Shown here one piece after another: positions 21,926-62,391 of a DNA stretch of 64,000 bases. The DNA lies in the NCBI GenBank assembly GCA_963710375.1, contig CAVPZX010000003.1, forward strand, positions 256,001-320,000, in the 5' to 3' direction. Under the pieces are notes generated by a model. The model was not told the DNA's origin. It saw only the letters and a program-made list of their open reading frames with translations, and did no database searches. The position numbers and the translations under genes were made by a program. How positions within the stretch are numbered: position 1 is the stretch's first letter; every line of letters starts with the position of its first letter. This DNA is from Nitrospirota bacterium (lineage in GTDB: Bacteria; Nitrospirota; Thermodesulfovibrionia; Thermodesulfovibrionales; Dissulfurispiraceae).

Positions 21926-22105
21926 GGGCTCGCGAATAAATAACTTGCACATTGATGCATCTCAGATTTAGGCCATCTTTGCCCGATCCTCAGTCGTAAA
22001 ATCCTCAACGTAGCTGTGCTACGCCTGCGGTTTTGCTCAGTCGGATCAGCCAAACCTGACCCAAGTCTGAGCGCCTGAATGCACAAGTTATTTATTCGCG
22101 AGCCC
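21926..22105. mobile_element. MITE-like palindromic element, family B, intergenic copy
   Basis: TIR gggctcgcgaataaataacttg; 180 bp; about 8 substitutions from the inverted copy at 46519-46698. Confidence 0.9.
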
Positions 22106-36933: not shown

Positions 36934-37632
36934 TTATGCTATCAAGTTCAAAGTATTGCTGCCGCTTTGAGCTCCAATACCGAAGAGTGAAGCAATATAG
37001 GAAATAGTGTTGCTGCTCGTAGAGTTTTGGGCTTGATTGTTGTTACTTGAAAGGTCACTTATTACTTTACTTAACGCTGTCGACAAGGTTGAGCTTTGCG
37101 AAGAGGTCCCCTGGTTCTGGGTTGCCGATGTCAACGCACTCTGAAGGGCCTGCAGGTCAGTTTGAAGATTCTGCATGGCACTGGTAGAGCTGCCGTTGGC
37201 TTCCATATGATGGTGATGATGGCGGCGGTGGTTTTGTGTGGCAGAGGTCATGTCAGTCAGGACTTGATTCAACGCCTGTGCCAGGGTTGAGTTTCCCGTT
37301 GTGCTTTGCGAAGAGGTCCCCTGGTTCTGGGCTGCCGATGTCAACGCACTCTGAAGGGCCTGCAGATCAGTTTGAAAATTCTGCATATTGCCGTTTACTG
37401 AGTTCTGGGTCTGATTGTTATTGCTCGCCGACTGACTCTGCGTGGTGCCGGTAATGTCATTTAGTACCTGAGATAACTGTTGTGTCAACGCGCCTTCGGA
37501 CAACGTAACCTGGTCTTGATTGCCTGAACTCAACGCACTCTGCAGGGCATTTAAGTCTGTGCTCAAATTCCTGAAATCTGACCTTACAGAATTCTGAGTC
37601 TGATAAATGTTGCCGACTGATTGTACAGTCAT
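36934..37632 (-). CDS. Low-complexity Q/S/T/N-rich protein with internal repeat and poly-His
   Basis: Repeat MQNxQTDLQALQSALTSAxQNQGTSSQS twice, RRHHHHHM; AAGGAGG RBS; sigma54 promoter upstream. Confidence 0.8.
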   Translation of the reverse strand: MTVQSVGNIYQTQNSVRSDFRNLSTDLNALQSALSSGNQDQVTLSEGALTQQLSQVLNDITGTTQSQSASNNNQTQNSVNGNMQNFQTDLQALQSALTSAAQNQGTSSQSTTGNSTLAQALNQVLTDMTSATQNHRRHHHHHMEANGSSTSAMQNLQTDLQALQSALTSATQNQGTSSQSSTLSTALSKVISDLSSNNNQAQNSTSSNTISYIASLFGIGAQSGSNTLNLIA

Positions 37633-38042: not shown

Positions 38043-39125
38043 CTACGGGGCCTTGACCAGGACAAGAATATTCTGATCAGCTGTATTACTTACTGTTGCA
38101 CAGACCACTGTATTTGTGTCAGCACTTATACCGCACTGCATGGCGCTGCCGCCTGATGGGGTCATGGTAAACGAGCCGTTTGCATTAACCGAGTAAGTGC
38201 CTAAACTGGTCGAAGACTGGTTTGCCGCAGTAGCATTGTTTAATGTCCCGACTGACGTGAAGTTACCTTGTCCGTCAAATGTTAGATTGCCGGTTTGCGA
38301 GTTGAAGCCGCCATTTGTATCGCCTTCAACCATATAATACTTGCCTTTGAGGCTTGCGTTTGAGTACCCGCCCGAGCCGGCCTTTACCATTACGGCAACA
38401 TTCTGATAAGTTGTAGCACTTACAGTTGAACAGACAGCGGTGTTTGTGTCTGCACTCAAGCCGCAGTTCATAACACTGCCGGAAGTCCCGGTAAGGGTAA
38501 ACGCACCGTTGGGATTGACCGCGTATGTGCCGGTATCGTTGTCAGTCTGGTTTGCCCCGGTGCCGGTGGAACTGCCCATGGTCCCAGTGAACGTACCGTT
38601 GCCTTTGCCATCAAATGTCATGCTTCCGAACTCCGCGGTGAAGCCTGCGGACTCATCCAAACTTGCCAAATAATATGTGCCGCTAAGGTTTGCGTTTGAT
38701 AACCCGCTCGATGCGGCCTTTACCAAAACGTTGATGCTCTGGTAAGTCTTGTTGCTCACACTCGCGCAGACAGCGGTGTTTGTGTCTGCGCTCAAGCCGC
38801 AGTTTGTCACACCGCCGGAAGTCCCTGTAAGAGTAAACGAACCATTGGCACTGACTGAATAAGTGCCTGAATCACTTTCAGCCTGGTGTGCCCCGGATGA
38901 ACTGCTGTAATTCCCCGTATACGTACCGTTGCCTTTACCATCGTATGTTGAATCACCGAATTCCCCAACAATGCCCCCGGATTGGTCCAGACTGGCCGTA
39001 AAAAAAGTACCGTTCAGGTTTGCATTATTAAATGAAGAGTTTGAGCTTGATGACCCTCCTCCGCAGGCTGTTAATAGCAATAAAGTCAATACCGGGATCA
39101 AAAACACTAAGTTTCTTACCCTCAT
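38043..39125 (-). CDS. Lipoprotein with three ~110-aa beta-rich repeats
   Basis: Lipobox LTAC-GGGSSS; repeats NAxLxG.Y/F...DG.GN...GTYxV..NG.FT..CG.SADTNT.VC. Confidence 0.85.
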   Translation of the reverse strand: MRVRNLVFLIPVLTLLLLTACGGGSSSSNSSFNNANLNGTFFTASLDQSGGIVGEFGDSTYDGKGNGTYTGNYSSSSGAHQAESDSGTYSVSANGSFTLTGTSGGVTNCGLSADTNTAVCASVSNKTYQSINVLVKAASSGLSNANLSGTYYLASLDESAGFTAEFGSMTFDGKGNGTFTGTMGSSTGTGANQTDNDTGTYAVNPNGAFTLTGTSGSVMNCGLSADTNTAVCSTVSATTYQNVAVMVKAGSGGYSNASLKGKYYMVEGDTNGGFNSQTGNLTFDGQGNFTSVGTLNNATAANQSSTSLGTYSVNANGSFTMTPSGGSAMQCGISADTNTVVCATVSNTADQNILVLVKAP

Positions 39126-39208
39126 CACAAACCCCCTATTTTCTTGCCGTGTCCAAGATTCAAAGAATCCTGCATTAAAAACTAACAAATCAAATCCGCG
39201 CAATGGTG

Positions 39209-40186
39209 TCAATCCAAAAACGGACTAAGGAGCAGTCCGCCGGCCGCCTGGTTCGCGTTGAAGCCGCGGTCGAGCTTTAGCGGGGAGCCCTTGCCTAGAT
39301 TGCGCTCGAATATATCACTGTAGTTGCCGACGGCAGAGATTACCCGGCGCTGCCAATTCTTGTCGAGACCCAACTCCGGCGCATAGACAGGCATTGCCCT
39401 GGCGCCTCCGTCATACCACTTTGTTTCCGGCCTTTCTCCGCTTATCAGCGTATGCACTGTCCATGCGACTATCGCGGACCATTGCGCGTCTGCTGTTCCG
39501 GTTGCGGCAATAACAGGGTAGGCGGACAACGTCTCCGGTAGGATGCGGTTTGTCATACCTTTTTTGACCGGTGTGAGCCGTGTCATTGCCAGGGTCGTTG
39601 TCTCATCTGCGACAGCATCGCAATTCTGCACATTGTAACTATCATTCATCTCCCCGTCCTCAGAGAACGGAGCAGGCATAAATTCATTGTGAAGGTTGTC
39701 GAAATAGTTCTTAAGGCTGCGCTCGACAGTGGATGCGATCATAAAGCAGATCTTCTTCCCGGACAGGTCTCCGACATGCTGCGCAGGCGAAGTGGACGGC
39801 ACCATCACAGAATGGGATTCTAAAAAGACTGTAGGGCCCGGCGTGATCTTGCCTGCAACTTCCAGAGCGTTTATCTCAAGTCCGGTGAGAAAATAGACGT
39901 CATCCTGTTGGTTCCGAATTGCCTCGACCTGCTTCAGAGTTTCGAAGTCGCCGTATTCGATCTTTTCGGGCGACCCCAGCACTGCCGCGGCAATAGCCCG
40001 GCAAACATCGACATTGAGTCCTGCCCAGCGGCCATTTCCGTCCTTGCCGGCAAGACCCGGACGTTCAAGGCTGCTGCAACGTACCACGCCCCGCGCCTTC
40101 ACCCGTTCGACTATCGAGCCTGCCCTTGCATTCTGGACCGGGAAGCAGACCGCGAACAAAACCAGTAAGGTTAATAAAATTTGCAT
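39209..40186 (-). CDS. Orphan amino-acid ABC substrate-binding protein (AapJ/BztA-like)
   Basis: VKARG.VRC, G.W.G..VD.CRAIAAAVLG, VGNY.DIFERNLG.GSPL.LDRG.N; no permease or ATPase adjacent. Confidence 0.8.
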   Translation of the reverse strand: MQILLTLLVLFAVCFPVQNARAGSIVERVKARGVVRCSSLERPGLAGKDGNGRWAGLNVDVCRAIAAAVLGSPEKIEYGDFETLKQVEAIRNQQDDVYFLTGLEINALEVAGKITPGPTVFLESHSVMVPSTSPAQHVGDLSGKKICFMIASTVERSLKNYFDNLHNEFMPAPFSEDGEMNDSYNVQNCDAVADETTTLAMTRLTPVKKGMTNRILPETLSAYPVIAATGTADAQWSAIVAWTVHTLISGERPETKWYDGGARAMPVYAPELGLDKNWQRRVISAVGNYSDIFERNLGKGSPLKLDRGFNANQAAGGLLLSPFLD

Positions 40187-40271: not shown

Positions 40272-42398
40272 CTAATTATTCGCTGATACGGTGCTCGGCA
40301 ACGGGTTGAACCCTGCAGGCGGCGCAAAGTCCTGCGTCTGACCCGGCGGTAAAACCGGGGTGATCCCGATAGCCTGGCAACCGGTTCCGCCGTAGTGAGG
40401 GAACGTACTCACGACGCTTGCCGGAAGCGAGGCAAGCGAGGACGAAAGCGGAGGAGTTATTCCCTGCAGGCGGTTTTGATCAAAGCCCGACAGCAGGCTG
40501 TCGGTAATCGTCGAGTTGATGTCGCGCGGCCCAAGGTATTGCTGCGTGAACGTGGACCCGGCCGGGGCAAACTGGTTGAACATGGTGGAGTTGCCCAGAT
40601 GCAGGGCCAATTCCTCATTAGGCAGAGAGGCGAGAGGGGGCAGGCCGAAGATCGTATTGATCGTCTGTATTATTGCATTGTGGTCCCCTTCGACATGGGA
40701 GACGGAATGAGCCTTAGCGTAGGGCGAGATCATTATCAGGGGTATGCGGATCCCGCGGGAAAGTGGATAACCGTCAGGCCCGTAAGAAAGGATCCGAGGC
40801 GGGACGTGATCGTAGAATCCATCCGACTCATCGTATGTTATGATGATCAGGCTCTGGCTCCAGATATTGGGATTTGACGCCACCGCGTTTATGACATTGG
40901 CTGCCATGGCCTCGCTAAGCTGGCGGTCGGTGTAAGAAGGATGGTCGTCGTCGCCGGCCTTGGCCGCCTGGATTGTGCTGATCTGGGCCGCGGTGTAATT
41001 GGCGGTGTTACTTATGGTAGGCTTCACGCCCATCTGGTTCTGGTAGCCTCCGCGGATGTAAAAAATGCCGCCATTTGGCAGTGTCTTGTTTGTCATGTCG
41101 TTGAAGAAGTCTGTGATACCTTTGAAGCTTCCACGCTGCGAAGGGTTGTTGGCAAGATAACCGAAGTACTGGGGCCCCTGATGATGGCTGACATAGGCCA
41201 GGTGCGTGGCTGTCCCGCCGGTATCGGATGACTCGAGGTCGTAACCCTCCTGGTACCAGCGCCAGTTAACGGGAGTACTGCCGTAGGCCTGGATGTAAGG
41301 GATATCCTGCTGGATGTCGGGCGTGTCGAAAGTCGGGTTCAGGTCCTGCGCCATGTTCGCAGTGACATTTGTGCCCAACGCAGTCAGCAGCACATTTGCA
41401 AAGGTCAGGTTCACCTCAATGTTGCTGTTAGAGTAGCCGTCATTAACGTTCTTAGGCTGTATTGTTGCGAGAGGCGTCGGGTCGAACTGGGAGCCGTAAA
41501 AAGGCTGATGATCTCCAACCATCGGTGTCCCGACTGTTGTCCCCGATCCGGTTGTGCCGCTGGTAGCAGTGGCTGTATAAGTCACGCCCGGAGAGAATGT
41601 GCCGTTTGTTCCCGGATGCAAGACCCACTGTGTTTCGCCTGACTGCCCGGCTATCATTGCAACAGCATTTGGAGATGAAGGCGTATCCTCCGTGGCGAAG
41701 ATATTGTCAAAGATAGTGAAGTTGTTTGCCCACTGCCAGAAGAAAGGAATTGTATTACAGTCGATATGAGACATCACGAGACGCGCGAACTGTGTGCCCT
41801 CTGCAGCGTTCGCAGTGCCGCCCGATCTCGCAAAGCGGTTATACTCGTCATAGGAGAACTGGTCCATTTGAGCTTGCGGCGTACCATTTACGACTTTCGC
41901 GTCTATCTTGATCGGGATCCCGTTAAGAAACCCGTTGGCGGGTGTGGCGACATTATGACCGTGGTCAACACTGTCAACTACGTTGGAATTTTGTTGAGGC
42001 CCGATAAGGAACGGCGTGACCGTGACTGTGTTGCCGTTAACGTCGGTATAAGTCTGGGTATAGCCCAGCGTGTTGGCGGCTGAGCGGGGGTTCACACCGT
42101 CCGAGTACAGGCCGTTGACGCCTGGGAATGTGCCGTACTCATTGTCGAAAGAGTGGTTCTCGTTGAAGATGACAAACACATATTTGATCTTCTGCTGCAG
42201 CAGCGCCACAAGCTGGGCATTCGTCAGACTGGAGGACGATCCCGGAGGATTGAAGAATCGTGAGACCTCCTTATCGCCGCCGGGCTGGGCTGTGACGGTC
42301 GGAGTCAACTGGTCGGCTGAAGCAGCCGGGATAATGGCGGCCTGCGACAGCAAGGCTGATGCGGCCAGGGCAAGACAGAATTTTGTAAACCTTCTCAT
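40272..42398 (-). CDS. Secreted phosphoesterase-family protein (phospholipase C / acid phosphatase)
   Basis: Signal peptide; IKYVFVIFNENHSFDNEYGTFPG, ITYDESDGFYDHVPP, GIRIPLIMISPYAK. Confidence 0.9.
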   Translation of the reverse strand: MRRFTKFCLALAASALLSQAAIIPAASADQLTPTVTAQPGGDKEVSRFFNPPGSSSSLTNAQLVALLQQKIKYVFVIFNENHSFDNEYGTFPGVNGLYSDGVNPRSAANTLGYTQTYTDVNGNTVTVTPFLIGPQQNSNVVDSVDHGHNVATPANGFLNGIPIKIDAKVVNGTPQAQMDQFSYDEYNRFARSGGTANAAEGTQFARLVMSHIDCNTIPFFWQWANNFTIFDNIFATEDTPSSPNAVAMIAGQSGETQWVLHPGTNGTFSPGVTYTATATSGTTGSGTTVGTPMVGDHQPFYGSQFDPTPLATIQPKNVNDGYSNSNIEVNLTFANVLLTALGTNVTANMAQDLNPTFDTPDIQQDIPYIQAYGSTPVNWRWYQEGYDLESSDTGGTATHLAYVSHHQGPQYFGYLANNPSQRGSFKGITDFFNDMTNKTLPNGGIFYIRGGYQNQMGVKPTISNTANYTAAQISTIQAAKAGDDDHPSYTDRQLSEAMAANVINAVASNPNIWSQSLIIITYDESDGFYDHVPPRILSYGPDGYPLSRGIRIPLIMISPYAKAHSVSHVEGDHNAIIQTINTIFGLPPLASLPNEELALHLGNSTMFNQFAPAGSTFTQQYLGPRDINSTITDSLLSGFDQNRLQGITPPLSSSLASLPASVVSTFPHYGGTGCQAIGITPVLPPGQTQDFAPPAGFNPLPSTVSANN

Positions 42399-46043: not shown

Positions 46044-46508
46044 GTGTTTCAGGTGGCCCGCTCAGATTGCCCATCTATCAATAGACAAGGTTTTACGCTC
46101 CTCGAATTGATGATCGTGCTTTTTCTCATTTCGCTCATAATGGGACTCTCGGCGGTTTATTTTTCCAACGCAATGCCGTCAACCAAGCTTAATGCTGCAG
46201 TCAGGGAACTGTCTGCAACGATCCGTTATGCCCGAACACTTGCAATGATCGACGGCAAGCTCCAGACATTAAACATTGACCTCGATGCAAAAAGATACGG
46301 CATAGAAGGGCGCGGGTATAAAGACATCGATTCCGGGATAACAATAATGGCGCTCGATCCTTTTGCAGGAGAGGTGCGCAATGGAACATACCGTCTTATG
46401 TTTCAAGCGTCAGGAGGGGTGCAGGGAGGGACGATTGTCCTGGGCAGCGGGAAAAAGAAAGTCAGTATCGGACTTGATCCGGTTGTAGGATCAGTGGTAG
46501 TGAAATGA
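46044..46508 (+). CDS. gspH: T2SS-1 minor pseudopilin H
   Basis: G|FTLLELMIVL; operon position. Confidence 0.85.
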   Translation: MFQVARSDCPSINRQGFTLLELMIVLFLISLIMGLSAVYFSNAMPSTKLNAAVRELSATIRYARTLAMIDGKLQTLNIDLDAKRYGIEGRGYKDIDSGITIMALDPFAGEVRNGTYRLMFQASGGVQGGTIVLGSGKKKVSIGLDPVVGSVVVK

Positions 46509-47071
46509 ATAATGTAAAGGGCTCGCGAATAAATAGCTTGTGCATTCAGGCGCTCAGATTTAGGTCAGATTTGGCTGATCCGACTGAGCAAAACCGCAGG
46601 CGTAGCAGAGCTACGTTGAGGATTTTGCGATTGAGGATCGGGCAAAGATGGCCTGAATCTGAGATGCATCAATGTGCAAGTTATTTATTCGCGAGCCCAG
46701 AAGGCTTTACGCTTCTTGAAATCCTTGTTGCACTCGCCCTGCTGAGCATAGCCTTACTGGTTATAGTGCAGCTTTTCTCCGCTGACCTGCGAGGCATATC
46801 TGTCTCGGACGATTACGTCGTTGCTGTTGCGACTGCAGAGTCCAGGATGAGGGAACTGCTTGACGATGATAAGCTTTCCGAGAAGAACTTGAGCGAGTAT
46901 ACCGATGATGGATACCGGATAGATACCTCTGTGAAAGAGTCGCTCACGGACAGGACCGAAAACTTACAGGTCAGAATCTTTGATATAGGACTAGCCGTTC
47001 ATTGGAGAAAATGGGGACGGGACAGGTCTGTCACCCTTAGGACCCTGAAAGTAATGAAGAAGGAACTATAA
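46505..47071 (+). CDS. gspI: T2SS-1 minor pseudopilin I with a 60-aa MITE-derived insert in its leader
   Basis: G|FTLLEILVALALL preceded by a 67-aa leader; ATG overlaps the gspH stop. Confidence 0.85.
   Translation: MNNVKGSRINSLCIQALRFRSDLADPTEQNRRRSRATLRILRLRIGQRWPESEMHQCASYLFASPEGFTLLEILVALALLSIALLVIVQLFSADLRGISVSDDYVVAVATAESRMRELLDDDKLSEKNLSEYTDDGYRIDTSVKESLTDRTENLQVRIFDIGLAVHWRKWGRDRSVTLRTLKVMKKEL
46519..46698. mobile_element. MITE-like element, family B, in frame within the gspI leader
   Basis: 180 bp with TIR gggctcgcgaataaata; reverse complement of 21926-22105; no stop codon in the gspI frame. Confidence 0.92.
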
Positions 47072-48679: not shown

Positions 48680-50217
48680 ATGGAAGCTATAAGAAAAATA
48701 ACTTCATTTGTCTTTGACACAGCCTCCGGGGTGAAGAAAATTACCATCCCCTTAAGGAATGCGCTTACGTTCAGTGCCGCTGATGAACGTATATCATACA
48801 AGAAAGAGCTTTGCGTAGCCATTGAAAAGACCGGCGTGTCCTTAGCATACGGGACGCGGTTCTTATCATCCCTCTCGGTCAAAGGGATGAGGCATTACCA
48901 TTACTCGTCTGCTGAGCATGCCTACCCTCAGCCAAAAGAAGCGGCATCGTCAGTAGTATTGGCCATTAGCGAATTCGGTGCTGTGGGGGCCGGTATTATT
49001 CTAAGCATTCCCAAATCCTGGGCAATTGTAAGAATCGTTGAATTTCCAGTAACGGTCAAGGAGAATATATCGGATGTCGTTACCTATGAGCTGGACCGGC
49101 TTTTCCCTTTCAGCCCCGAAGAGGCTTTTTATGACTTCATCATAACCGGCGAAACTCCTGATAATATCACTTTGGCCATTGCCGCATCAAAGGCTGATCT
49201 GATCAAATCCTATTGTGCAGCTCTTGCAGATGAGAGACTCAGTGTGGACAGGGTCACTTTAAACCTCACTTCCATAGGGTCATTGTGCCGCTCTCTCCAC
49301 AAAAATAGAGATGCCCTCTTTATCGAAACCGATAGCGATGAATATGAGGGCGCACTGTTCCTTGACACTCCCTGGCAGGGGTTGTGAGCGGCAGGTTTTC
49401 TGCTGATGACGATGCATCAAGGGCCGACATAATTTCGGCTGAGATGAGACCGCTTATCGATACCGCAAAAAGGCGTGATAACGACCCTCGTCTGTTTGCC
49501 CTGCTGCGTGGCTCCCCCGCCTTAAAAGAAAGACTCAGGACATCTCTTGCATTTCCCGTATCGCTCCTTGATGAGATTGATACCGGGCTCGGCCTCAGTT
49601 CCGGGCAAAAGAATGTCCTTTACGCGGCAGCAGGCGGTGTGATGGAATCGTTGCAGCCGGGACACCAAAAGCTGAATCTCCTCTCAAGGGGCCTGCATGA
49701 GAGAGCAAAAACACCTATGGGATTGACAGCCGTGCTTGTGGCGCTTTTAATGGTGTTATGGATAATGTGCGAGCTTGCGCCAATACGGGTTGAAACAAAA
49801 CGACTCAGGGAAATTGAGGGCCAGATAAAAATCCGCAAGAGCGGAATGAAGGATTGGGAAACGCTCAAAAACCAAATAGATGCCATCAACAGTGAGGTTG
49901 AAACAATCAACGGCTTTAAGGAAAACAGGCCGATGACACTGACTATTCTCAAAGAGCTCACTGAAGTACTACCTAGATCGGCGTGGCTGACAAGAGTGAA
50001 CATTGGCCAATCAACGGTCAACATCGAAGGCTATTCAACAAGCTCCGCCTCGGAACTCCTGTCAAGGCTTGAGGCATCAAAACATCTGGGAAAGGCTGAA
50101 TTTGCCTCTCCCACATTCAGGGATGTTCGTATGATGGCAGACCGCTTTAACATAAAAATGGAGATAAGGGGAGCCAAAGAAATGAAAGTGGCGCCGCATA
50201 AAGATGATAAAAAGTAA
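48680..50217 (+). CDS. gspL: T2SS-1 GspL / PilM-PilN-like protein (-1 frameshift at ~49370)
   Basis: FP..VKEN...V.YELDR.FPF in the first ORF; LNLL + TM + PilN-like domain in the second. Adding one C at 49370-49372 joins them (DTPLAGVVSG). Confidence 0.75.
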
Positions 50218-54786: not shown

Positions 54787-54958
54787 GTAGTGGGCCAGTT
54801 TGCTTTTTACTCTGTATCAATTAGCCGTTCAATTCAATCACTGGCCTGTATCGAGCATTATCTGTGGTCGCCACTTCTATAATATGTGGGCTCGGCGTTA
54901 CTCGCCCACTATTGATAACCCAGGTGATTCAGAGCAAAAAGCAAACTGGCCCACTACC
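54786..54958. mobile_element. MITE-like element, family D
   Basis: 29-bp TIR ggtagtgggccagtttgcttttt(a/g)ctctg with 1 mismatch, starting at the upstream TAG stop; a partial similar end at ~53163-53187. Confidence 0.8.
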
Positions 54959-58775: not shown

Positions 58776-58804
58776 ACCCGAGAAAGTCTTCACCGCGGAG
58801 ACCG

Positions 58805-58996
58805 GTGATTCAGACAGTGGACAAGGCTCCTGCGCTCAGACGCTGCGTCCTGACAGTTCCAAAGGCTTGTTCGCTACGGTCGCTAAACTCGCCCTGCGGG
58901 CTCAAACATAGCGACTGTTTAATGCTCTCTTCGCCAGGAACTGTGACCAGGACTCCGCGATTCGCTCCTGAGACTTGTCCACTGTCTGAATTGCGG
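58805..58996. mobile_element. MITE-like element with family-C-type termini, nested in a GAGAC/CTCTGTG repeat
   Basis: Termini gtgattcagacagtggacaag / cttgtccactgtctgaattgc; internal hairpins. Confidence 0.75.
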
Positions 58997-59113
58997 CACT
59001 GAGACGCCGAGACACAGGGATTTTTTAAAAATGTTTTAAAATAGAAAAGTCTTATAACTCTGTGCCTCTGTGGTTTAGTTTTTTTATAGCGCACTTAATG
59101 AATGAGGTGAAGG

Positions 59114-60312: not shown

Positions 60313-60774
60313 ATGAAGGATGGAAAAGAAATAATGCGTAAACCGTTTATCTTTAACTCGGGCTTCACGCTTCTTGAGATCATCGTCGTGGTATTCATTC
60401 TGAGCCTGCTAGTTGCGATTGTCGCACCGAAGATTATGGGGAAAACTGATGACGCAAAGATAGCCCAGGCCAAGGTGCAGATAAGAAATTTTGAGACCGC
60501 CCTCAAAATGTACAAACTCGATAACGGATCTTATCCGACAACCGAGCAGGGACTCGATGCGCTGATTAATAAGCCTGTGACAGGACAGATACCAACTGCG
60601 TACAGGGATGGCGGTTATCTTGAAGAGCACAAAATCCCGATGGATCCCTGGGGCAACCCTTACGTTTACCTCTCGCCCGGCGCACATGGTGATTTTGACA
60701 TTATCAGCTTTGGCGCCGATGGGAAAGAAGGCGGCGAAGGGAAGAATGCGGACATCGCAAATTACAATATGTGA
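60313..60774 (+). CDS. gspG: T2SS-2 major pseudopilin
   Basis: G|FTLLEIIVV, YKLDNG.YPTTEQGL.AL, DPWGNPY. Confidence 0.96.
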   Translation: MKDGKEIMRKPFIFNSGFTLLEIIVVVFILSLLVAIVAPKIMGKTDDAKIAQAKVQIRNFETALKMYKLDNGSYPTTEQGLDALINKPVTGQIPTAYRDGGYLEEHKIPMDPWGNPYVYLSPGAHGDFDIISFGADGKEGGEGKNADIANYNM

Positions 60775-61402
60775 GGGTTTTTCTGCAATTCAGACAGTAC
60801 GGGGTAATTTTTCTTTGCGAGCGATTAGCCCGCTAAGCCAGACCTGCTGTCTATACGGAATATCATCTATGTTCCAGTTATACATGTGGGCTCGGCGTTA
60901 CTCGCCCTTTGCAGATAACCCAGGCGCTCGACTGCAGAAAAACAACCCCGTACTGTCTGAATTGCAGAAAGGTTTTACCCTTCTGGAACTCCTGGTGGTG
61001 ATCTTTCTGGTTTCCCTGCTGATGGCTATTGTCTTTCCGTCCATGTATGGTGCGGAAGGGATAAGTTTGAAGTCTGATGCACAGAGGATAGCATCGGTGT
61101 TGAGGTATCTGAACGACAGCTCTATTACAACAAAAGATCCTTATTCTCTCACGTTCGATTTCGGGGGAAATACCATATCATGGAAAGGTCCTGATGTAGA
61201 GAAGACCGAACAGTTAAGGAGTCTGTCGTCGGTTGAGCTGCCTTCAAAGGGGAAGGTTGGTGAAGGCCAGGTGATCGTATCTTTCGGCCCGCTCGGGATA
61301 CAGGAAAACCTTGTGGTCCATCTGCGGCAGGCAGGGGAGACAATGATGGTAGTTTTCAATCAATTGAGCGGAAGGGCCGCAATAAAAACAGATGACCGGT
61401 GA
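60746..61402 (+). CDS. gspH: T2SS-2 minor pseudopilin H with a 65-codon MITE-derived insert in its leader
   Basis: ATG 60746 overlaps the gspG end (MRTSQITICEGF...); the frame stays open through the element to KG|FTLLELLVV. Confidence 0.8.
   Translation: MRTSQITICEGFSAIQTVRGNFSLRAISPLSQTCCLYGISSMFQLYMWARRYSPFADNPGARLQKNNPVLSELQKGFTLLELLVVIFLVSLLMAIVFPSMYGAEGISLKSDAQRIASVLRYLNDSSITTKDPYSLTFDFGGNTISWKGPDVEKTEQLRSLSSVELPSKGKVGEGQVIVSFGPLGIQENLVVHLRQAGETMMVVFNQLSGRAAIKTDDR
60780..60970. mobile_element. MITE-like element, family C, in frame within the gspH-2 leader
   Basis: 25-bp perfect TIR tttctgcaattcagacagtacgggg; GGTTTT direct repeat at 60776 and 60971 (195 nt apart). Confidence 0.88.
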
Positions 61403-61766: not shown

Positions 61767-62391
61767 AAACAATCCTGTACTGTCTGAATTGCGGACTCAT
61801 AAGTCCTGTCACGGGTTTACGCTCATAGAGATGCTGCTCGCCATTGCGCTTTTATCCATCGTGCTGGTCGCTCTCTACGGCACTTTTTTCGTATCACAAA
61901 AGGCGATAGAGGGCGCTGACGATACCCTTGTGAGACTTCAGGAAGGCAGGACTGCTCTGGATATTTTACGCCGGGAACTTGCTTCCGCGGTTTTTAGCGG
62001 GAGTAACAACCTGACGCTTTTTACTATGAAGGAAACTGATATATATGATAAAAAGGTTTCGACGCTTTCATTTACCGCATTCTCTCCGTATATACCGGGA
62101 CTCGCGAATATACAATATTATGTGGAAGAAAGGAAGGGAAGGCTGGTCCTCCTGAAAAAAATAAATCCTTACTGGAACATTGACACAAATATGAAGGGCA
62201 CCGAAATTATCGATGATGTCGAAAGATTTACTGTTGAGAGCCTCTATAACGGACAATGGGTAAGCATCTGGGACACAGGAGAGACCGTTAAATTGCCTGA
62301 TGAACTCAGAGTTACGATTACGGTCCGTATTAGAGACAAGCTCATACCCCTTTTTGAGATCATCCGACCCAGGATAGGGAAGGCGATATGA
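61741..62391 (+). CDS. gspJ: T2SS-2 minor pseudopilin J (leader contains a family-C remnant)
   Basis: G|FTLIEMLLAI; W...WD....LP...RVTI. Confidence 0.88.
   Translation: MHHLIMRHRNNPVLSELRTHKSCHGFTLIEMLLAIALLSIVLVALYGTFFVSQKAIEGADDTLVRLQEGRTALDILRRELASAVFSGSNNLTLFTMKETDIYDKKVSTLSFTAFSPYIPGLANIQYYVEERKGRLVLLKKINPYWNIDTNMKGTEIIDDVERFTVESLYNGQWVSIWDTGETVKLPDELRVTITVRIRDKLIPLFEIIRPRIGKAI
61767..61794 (+). repeat. Remnant right end of a family-C element in the gspJ-2 leader
   Basis: aaacaatcctgtactgtctgaattgcgg vs aaacaaccccgtactgtctgaattgcag (60940-60967); both read NNPVLSEL. Confidence 0.75.

Follow-up and report, generated by a model that had tools for sequence, protein, structure and literature searches.

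A hairpin MITE in frame within the leader of the pseudopilin gene gspI in a Nitrospirota bacterium, with similar insertions in related genomes

Organization of the gspI locus

We analysed a stretch of 64,000 nucleotides of a Nitrospirota genome (hereafter the window), in which the minor pseudopilin gene gspI of a first T2SS operon contains a long hairpin. The features of the locus and an intergenic copy of the hairpin are as follows, in window coordinates.

46044–46508, plus strand: gspH, the gene upstream of gspI
46505–46508, plus strand: ATGA, in which the start codon of gspI overlaps the stop codon of gspH
46505–47071, plus strand: gspI, minor pseudopilin ORF of 188 aa (67-aa leader and 121-aa mature part)
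46505–46705, plus strand: extended class III leader, with 12 Lys/Arg and 6 Asp/Glu residues and no hydrophobic stretch
46516–46518, plus strand: left 3-bp flank AAA, probably a decayed copy of a TNA duplication, judging from the family
46519–46698, plus strand: 180-bp hairpin MITE (family B) with ISAzo13-type ends, open in one of six frames
46519–46546, plus strand: left arm of the terminal inverted repeat, in the predicted 28-bp outer stem
46664–46666, plus strand: internal in-frame ATG within the stem, which would yield a 14-aa leader
46671–46698, plus strand: right arm of the terminal inverted repeat, from the same predicted fold
46699–46701, plus strand: right 3-bp flank AGA, which supplies the Glu codon before the Gly; probably the other decayed copy of the duplication
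46703–46708, plus strand: prepilin peptidase site Gly/Phe predicted by motif models
21926–22105, minus strand: intergenic copy of the MITE, 95.6% identical, with the same frame also open

The gspI ORF contains no stop codon, and its neighbours match models of gspG, E, F, H, J, K and M. Its scores against the GspI/XpsI models lie below their curated cut-offs, and both the TIGR02532 prepilin motif, which starts at residue 67, and PF07963 score above theirs. Like class III signal peptides, the leader is hydrophilic (net charge +6, maximal hydropathy 0.13) and ends in Gly/Ala, followed by a hydrophobic stretch with Glu5. The element lengthens this leader from 6–7 to 67 residues, and the only open frame among its six is the one that gspI uses. 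A Pfam search with that open frame gave no match, nor did an Rfam scan of positions 46400–46800 at E≤1. The predicted fold of the element has a free energy of −113.8 kcal/mol (z −15.65; none of 200 shuffles as good), and its stem starts 14 bases past the gspI start codon.

An earlier note on this DNA, made from the sequence alone, had described an exact 180-bp insertion, in frame and stop-free, in the gspI leader, close to identical to the intergenic copy. Deleting positions 46519–46698 indeed restores the canonical short leader MNNVKEG/FTLLE (the slash marks the predicted cleavage site), the ORF is uninterrupted with its 67-residue leader, its ATG does overlap the gspH stop as ATGA, and alignment with the reverse complement of 21926–22105 recovers the 95.6% identity on the other strand. 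The size of 180 bp is correct as arithmetic but probably not as an event: since the family carries 3-bp TNA duplications, the insertion at gspI most likely comprised 183 bp. Deleting 183 bases also yields a canonical gspI leader. Relative to TNA, the AAA and AGA flanks would have lost the T on both sides, at a codon third position. Thus, the element and its frame had been correctly recognized, and the 3-bp duplication, the in-frame ATG at 46664 and the recurrence described below had been overlooked.

Upstream of gspG, the minus strand carries a low-complexity Ser/Gln/His-rich ORF (36934–37632), a repeat-containing lipoprotein-like ORF (38043–39212) and a phosphoesterase-like ORF (40272–42398), all named by eye; they are possible secreted substrates.

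A multicopy MITE family with ISAzo13-type ends

The element has the hallmarks of a MITE, being short, multicopy and bounded by terminal inverted repeats that form the 28-bp outer stem. The genome under study (G000; other G numbers denote the other genomes compared, and those named here as G001–G008 are members of the same genus) contains 27 full-length copies. Identical 3-mers flank ten of them, and ten of the 12 copies with TNA on both sides have matching flanks; in relatives, identical 3-mers flank 14 of 38 copies among the matches listed. Empty sites contain a single TAA in two comparisons, that of the 5'-nucleotidase gene of G000 with its filled counterpart in G005, and that of gspH-2 of G005 with G008. 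The family duplicates TNA, so each insertion adds 183 bases. Target-site duplication is hence a property of the family, and the flanks of the gspI copy itself read AAA/AGA. Near-full-length copies are present in seven of the nine other genomes of the genus, and none was found in the remaining 31 genomes searched.

The terminal 17–18 bases of the family also end genes for transposases of the PF07592 (ISAzo13) family, at L145 (E 7e-30), L129 and three sister loci. When species genomes were scanned for the terminal 18 bases, 41 loci emerged, several of which directly follow the C-terminus of an ISAzo13 transposase. Of 21 terminal bases, 19 agree with those of a complete 1309-bp Nitrospirota element, L178, flanked by TTA on both sides. 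Another autonomous element, L187, has TAA/TAA flanks, and those of L184 (TTA/TCA) are not an exact pair. The search for PF07592 transposases in G000 and 40 relatives returned none in the 41 genomes, and its controls were silent as well; across the phylum, ISAzo13 transposases are present in 41 of 401 genomes, including one of the 34 in the family. The gene-less hairpin was likely inserted by a borrowed transposase. Its likeness to the ISAzo13-family IS lies in the terminal 17–21 bases and the 3-bp TNA flanks; it differs in coding for no transposase, in measuring 180 bp rather than about 1.3 kb and in consisting entirely of one long hairpin. The mobile origin proposed in the earlier note, which rested on the single intergenic copy, is supported by the 27 full-length copies, the TNA duplications and the ends common to ISAzo13 elements.

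Several other sequences with related ends came to light. In a Chromatiaceae genome, a 179-bp relative that shares these ends and is flanked by TAA/TTA exists in multiple copies (L130, L139, L140 and L142); the one in L140 harbours a further palindromic element. The 1353-bp span with matching ends at L142 was considered as an IS and rejected, as it consists of a copy of the 179-bp MITE, a gene and an unrelated repeat. Likewise, a pair of element ends 2.3 kb apart on contig C1 of G000 was discarded as an autonomous parent, as it encloses ordinary-looking genes. In G005, an ORF resembling an IS630 transposase by eye (L218:3-1016) lies about 240 bases from a family-B copy.

Leaders of gspI orthologues

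The 180-bp element is absent from the gspI leaders of all close orthologues, so the gspI leader shows the presence/absence pattern at orthologous sites that is typical of MITEs. The closest orthologue (93% identity) has an 8-aa leader, MKQPESEG, that differs from the G000 leader, and the next ones have leaders of 8, 10, 11, 13 and 20 aa; a true empty allele of the 46519–46698 site was not found among them. The earlier note held that long leaders in orthologues lacking the repeat would speak against an insertion. That is partly what we find: the closest orthologues have short leaders (8–20 aa), and those of G001, G003 and G007 measure 34, 42 and 55 aa. As these three long leaders fold as hairpins (z −3.3, −6.0 and −4.2, respectively), they look like other repeats at the same place. 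Among ten long orthologous leaders tested, four had z below −3, and the best internal period was 7–8 bases in eight. In related genomes, many pseudopilin leaders consist of tandem words of 7–8 bases (L004, L006, L008, L010, L014 and L048–L050), and the same is seen in leaders L240, L245, L266, L267, L271 and L275.

Recurrent insertions in cleavable leaders

Full-length family-B copies are also found in two other prepilin genes. In the gspI gene of the second operon of G008 (gspI-2), the leader reads MTSE-(element)-PEG/F with perfect TGA/TGA flanks, and in gspJ-2 of G003 it reads MQHR-(element)-PKG/F, also in frame. All three full-length prepilin copies, including that of G000 gspI, are read in the same frame and end in P-(E or K)-G/F. 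A further full copy, in G005 (L218:1261-1440), occupies the basic N-terminal part of a Sec-type signal peptide, in frame with the upstream ATG. Its host is a 5'-nucleotidase-like protein, named by eye, whose G000 orthologue is empty.

Altogether, we examined 65 full-length copies: every one of the 27 in G000, plus 38 in relatives among the matches listed, up to 20 candidates per genome; this scope applies to the counts of full-length copies that follow. Only four of the 65 are intragenic, and all four reside in N-terminal cleavable leaders. These four are exactly 180 bp long and stop-free, as against 19 of the 61 others (P=0.013) and 10 of the 29 other copies matched for divergence. An open frame is a trait of the family consensus; hence, that the gspI copy is open shows no selection, as this copy is young, with five differences from the consensus. 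For two G000 copies (C6:23627 and C5:504392), the open frame continues into the downstream gene; since a Met codon and a purine-rich site come after the element, both were classed as intergenic.

Shorter remnants, of 45, 21, 21 and 24 bp, are in frame in the leaders of gspH, gspI and a gene of a third cluster, and they contain no in-frame ATG. A left-end remnant of family B occupies a minor pilin leader of G000 (C7:65009-65054); its G003 orthologue has a similar remnant, and its G008 orthologue a full copy of a second family instead.

This second family, of 185 bp and unrelated to family B, thus occurs in a minor-pilin leader of G008 and is also represented in the second T2SS operon of the window:

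60783–60967, plus strand: 185-bp second-family hairpin, in frame within the gspH leader and free of stops (ORF 60746–61402)
61777–61794, plus strand: terminal remnant of a second-family element, within the gspJ leader

Among 109 prepilin leaders from nine genomes of the genus, themselves part of 159 Pfam matches, 12 contain a copy or remnant of either family: nine of family B, at six different genes, and three of the second family. As kin share some insertion sites, the 12 leaders do not amount to 12 events. A pattern match in G077 was rejected as a further case, as the protein is not a prepilin. Judging from these comparisons, in-frame hairpin insertion is recurrent in pilin genes of related soil bacteria and is not a one-off.

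Some observations concern the second family itself. At its left junction, the copy at 60783–60967 generates a decoy Glu-Gly-Phe that is not followed by a hydrophobic stretch, and some copies of the family have 9-bp direct flanks. The window has two more intergenic hairpin repeats, at 54790–54955 and 58790–59010, one with an inner segment and the other with the ends of this family; the latter is nested in a hairpin of tandem words. At the gspG/gspH junction of the second operon, gspH apparently starts within the last gspG codons in four genomes of the genus (L236-L239), so that the gspG stop codon itself would be the insertion target within the gspH leader.

Proposed insertion, translation and removal of the element

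We favour the following reading as the probable one, with some reserve: a gene-less 180-bp hairpin with ISAzo13 ends, likely moved by a borrowed transposase, lies in its only open frame in the gspI leader, is likely translated from the start that overlaps gspH as part of a 67-residue leader, and would be cleaved off by prepilin peptidase, which would leave mature GspI unchanged. The element would insert at TNA and duplicate it, as established for the family. Prepilin leaders often end in xxT-GAA-GGN or xxT-AAA-GGN, which offer a TNA with its T at a codon third position. The arithmetic and the three prepilin cases show that, where the T closes one codon and NA opens the Glu or Lys codon before Gly(−1), a forward insertion adds 183 bases, is read in the open frame, which only this phase allows, and rebuilds P-(E or K)-G/F. 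The phase of the E/K-G codons and the single open frame of the element explain why the cleavage site is rebuilt each time. Insertions that fall in a mature domain or in another phase are presumably purged.

Ribosomes would then initiate at the upstream ATG and traverse the hairpin. Read-through from the gspH-coupled ATG at 46505 is supported only indirectly, since all four leader copies are stop-free and the remnants are multiples of 3 devoid of in-frame ATG. Alternatively, translation might restart at the in-frame ATG of the element, at 46664, giving a 14-residue leader, with the upstream part bypassed or made as a by-product. That ATG belongs to the family consensus and is present in all three full-length prepilin cases, and a restart there would account for their common orientation and frame. 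Predicted pairing with an anti-Shine–Dalgarno motif is about equally weak for the two starts, at −3.4 kcal/mol for this ATG and −4.0 kcal/mol for the upstream one. However, it lies in the stem, with a mean unpaired probability of 0.15 as against 0.48 for the ATG at 46505. A restart would also leave unexplained why all four copies are stop-free upstream of it, and four remnants have lost the ATG yet stay in frame with the upstream start, as does the Sec-leader copy of G005. We therefore regard a restart as unlikely; the modelled accessibility and the ATG-less remnants favour the upstream ATG.

Once translated from 46505, the basic hydrophilic leader would, as expected from prepilin biology, remain in the cytoplasm and then be removed. 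Prepilin leaders are described, in the accessible text of PMC10191384, as variable in length, cytoplasmic by the positive-inside rule and the sole portion to be cleaved; the longest processed leader quoted in that of PMC5389465 has 18 residues. The genome has one prepilin peptidase gene, in the region C3:30099–30476. The element would survive in the leader because this part is likely translated and then cut off. Comparisons among relatives suggest that the hairpin subsequently shrinks by in-frame deletion, leaving scars of 21–45 bp.

Behind the older insertions, wherever the branch length permits a judgement, mature domains show purifying selection, with replacement to silent ratios of 1:8 for G008 gspI-2 and 6:19 for G003 gspJ-2. 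The branch of the mature gspI of G000 is too short to judge (two replacement and three silent changes). It could be argued that the insertion cripples gspI, through inefficient initiation, cleavage of the RNA in the long stem or inefficient processing, and persists only because it is recent and other T2SS operons are present. The copy is indeed young, the start codon precedes its stem by 14 bases, three gsp-like pseudopilin clusters occur in G000, and dN/dS with respect to the closest orthologue reaches 0.41 in gspI, compared with 0.09 in gspJ. Nevertheless, the four pairs compared all give a dN/dS of 0.24 to 0.41 for gspI of the first operon, and replacements are as numerous on the element-free L045 branch as on that of G000. 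The operon is moreover intact in short reads, the identical allele occurs in contigs of two studies, and the older insertions in relatives retain purifying selection. Loss of gspI function is thus quite improbable in our view, and we retain a translated, cleaved leader as the preferred reading.

Excess of leader insertions over a neutral expectation

We estimated how often leaders would be hit by chance with a crude neutral model that relies on ORF-based gene calls, takes all intergenic TNA as equally open and considers copies among the matches listed. In G000, roughly 30,000 TNA sites are intergenic, as against some 24 that lie in frame within leaders. Among the 38 relatives' copies, two leader insertions were observed for 0.015 expected; for all 65 copies, there were three for 0.026 expected, the three including the gspI copy that prompted the study. 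Leader insertions are thus roughly 100-fold above this crude estimate, among the matches listed. A flank-weighted target model was tried as a cause of the excess and rejected, since it did not raise the expected share of leaders. Tolerance alone seems too little for such an excess, and a junction preference or selection for the hairpin may contribute.

A more far-reaching proposal, which we put forward tentatively and consider doubtful, is that prepilin leaders are active MITE hot spots: two unrelated families of the genus would enter those of minor pseudopilins about 100 times more often than neutrally expected, be read as 60-residue throw-away peptides, collapse to scars and be retained for a low output of minor pseudopilins. 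According to this proposal, hairpins are kept because they set that low output, the overlapping genes leaving no other room for a regulatory RNA.

The related idea that selection maintains the hairpin to lower or tune how much minor pseudopilin is made in proportion to the major pseudopilin, the leader serving as a regulatory slot, appears still harder to sustain, and we give it little credence. In addition to the excess, it can draw on the occurrence of either family in 12 of 98 leaders of genes other than gspG and in none of the 11 gspG leaders, and on the different repeats that fill the same leaders in different species. The counts of 0 of 11 and 12 of 98 are, however, too few to separate; elements arrive, collapse and get replaced quickly, most orthologues have none, and the neutral estimate is crude enough that a junction preference would shrink the excess.

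Comparison with known repeats and leaders

The best-known parallel is the Rickettsia palindromic elements (RPEs), repeats fused in frame with ORFs, with nearly half of their copies in ORFs according to the accessible text of PMC10969869. The likeness extends to a palindrome of about 150–200 bp whose frame is open and which occurs in intergenic DNA as well as in frame within genes. RPEs nonetheless add a peptide to many unrelated proteins, whereas here 61 of 65 copies (those of relatives among the matches listed) lie outside genes and the other four in leaders. In-frame insertion in ORFs is thus common to both, at four of 65 copies here, and frequent insertion in many unrelated proteins is not. 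The element resembles an RPE in its form and placement and appears to work like one by analogy, and we do not file it as one.

The enterobacterial RU-2 is a MITE-like repeat that, as far as the accessible text of PMC2759123 describes it, lies in the predicted Sec signal peptide of one gene, YPO1552. Here, in contrast, the hydrophilic part of class III leaders is lengthened, recurrently, and the cleavage context is rebuilt. The palindrome quoted for a 24-member Geobacter family matches the central stem arms of our element; the available portions of PMC2700814 and PMC2996986 describe that family as intergenic, with no link to a transposase or to pilin leaders. The same portions report that other Geobacter families enter genes with no frameshift.

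As regards leader length, the type 4 pilins with long leaders (T4bP; Streptococcus sanguinis PilE1/E2) also have variable leaders, the longer ones being processed. The 67 residues of the gspI leader are far above the 18 given for S. sanguinis, and the consulted parts of PMC10191384 and PMC5389465 do not describe those leaders as repeat-derived. Repeats in prepilin leaders find no mention in the accessible text of PMC3119063, PMC5389465, PMC9208149 and PMC3543383, and a search by title and abstract, mostly outside the subscription literature, found no publication on them. In-frame insertion of MITEs in genes is already known; their confinement to cleavable leaders is the new aspect.

That a leader predicted to be cleaved can carry 60 foreign residues suggests that selection has a blind spot within genes, and the gspI case offers a direct test of the leader length tolerated by prepilin peptidase. 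It also implies that the start sites of pseudopilin genes are easily miscalled. A single element is available here as a dated series at defined sites (full length, 45 bp and 21–24 bp), and if the excess over the neutral expectation holds, targeting or selection would be at work.

Support for the assembly

The gspI junctions were examined in contigs from short-read runs of two studies, X3 being from the second and X1 possibly the source of the assembly; runs X7–X16, with small shares or none, were left out. In X3, X4 and X5, contigs extend from unique gspH DNA 48–74 bases into the element, and from 29–30 bases inside the element out into gspI, letter for letter as in the window and without any joint bypassing the element in full; X1 agrees at both junctions. 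The misassembly envisaged in the earlier note thus finds no sign at either junction, base for base, in four runs from two studies, which share an identical allele, the whole element itself being spanned by no short-read contig (the right overlap is just below the 31-base bridging rule). That the element was placed at gspI by an assembly error between repeat copies is very improbable: the window does have other errors, single-base indels at 49367 and 58157, and no short-read contig covers the full element, but the junctions are exact in all four runs, a joint skipping the element is absent, and equivalent leader insertions exist in other species.

Joints that skip 45–123 bases inside the element were considered as alleles of the gspI site and rejected, as they match other, shorter copies. 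One X1 joint connects positions 46699 and 60784; its 30-base side consists of repeat ends, we treated it as a repeat artefact, and no adjacent pair of elements of the two families that would account for it was found in G000. A third indel of the window, at 54881, differs in three of the four runs. The apparent frameshifts in gspL (49367, first operon) and gspE (58157, second operon) are single-base errors of the window in all four runs, and the first gsp operon is intact in the short reads, the gspL break being absent from each of them.
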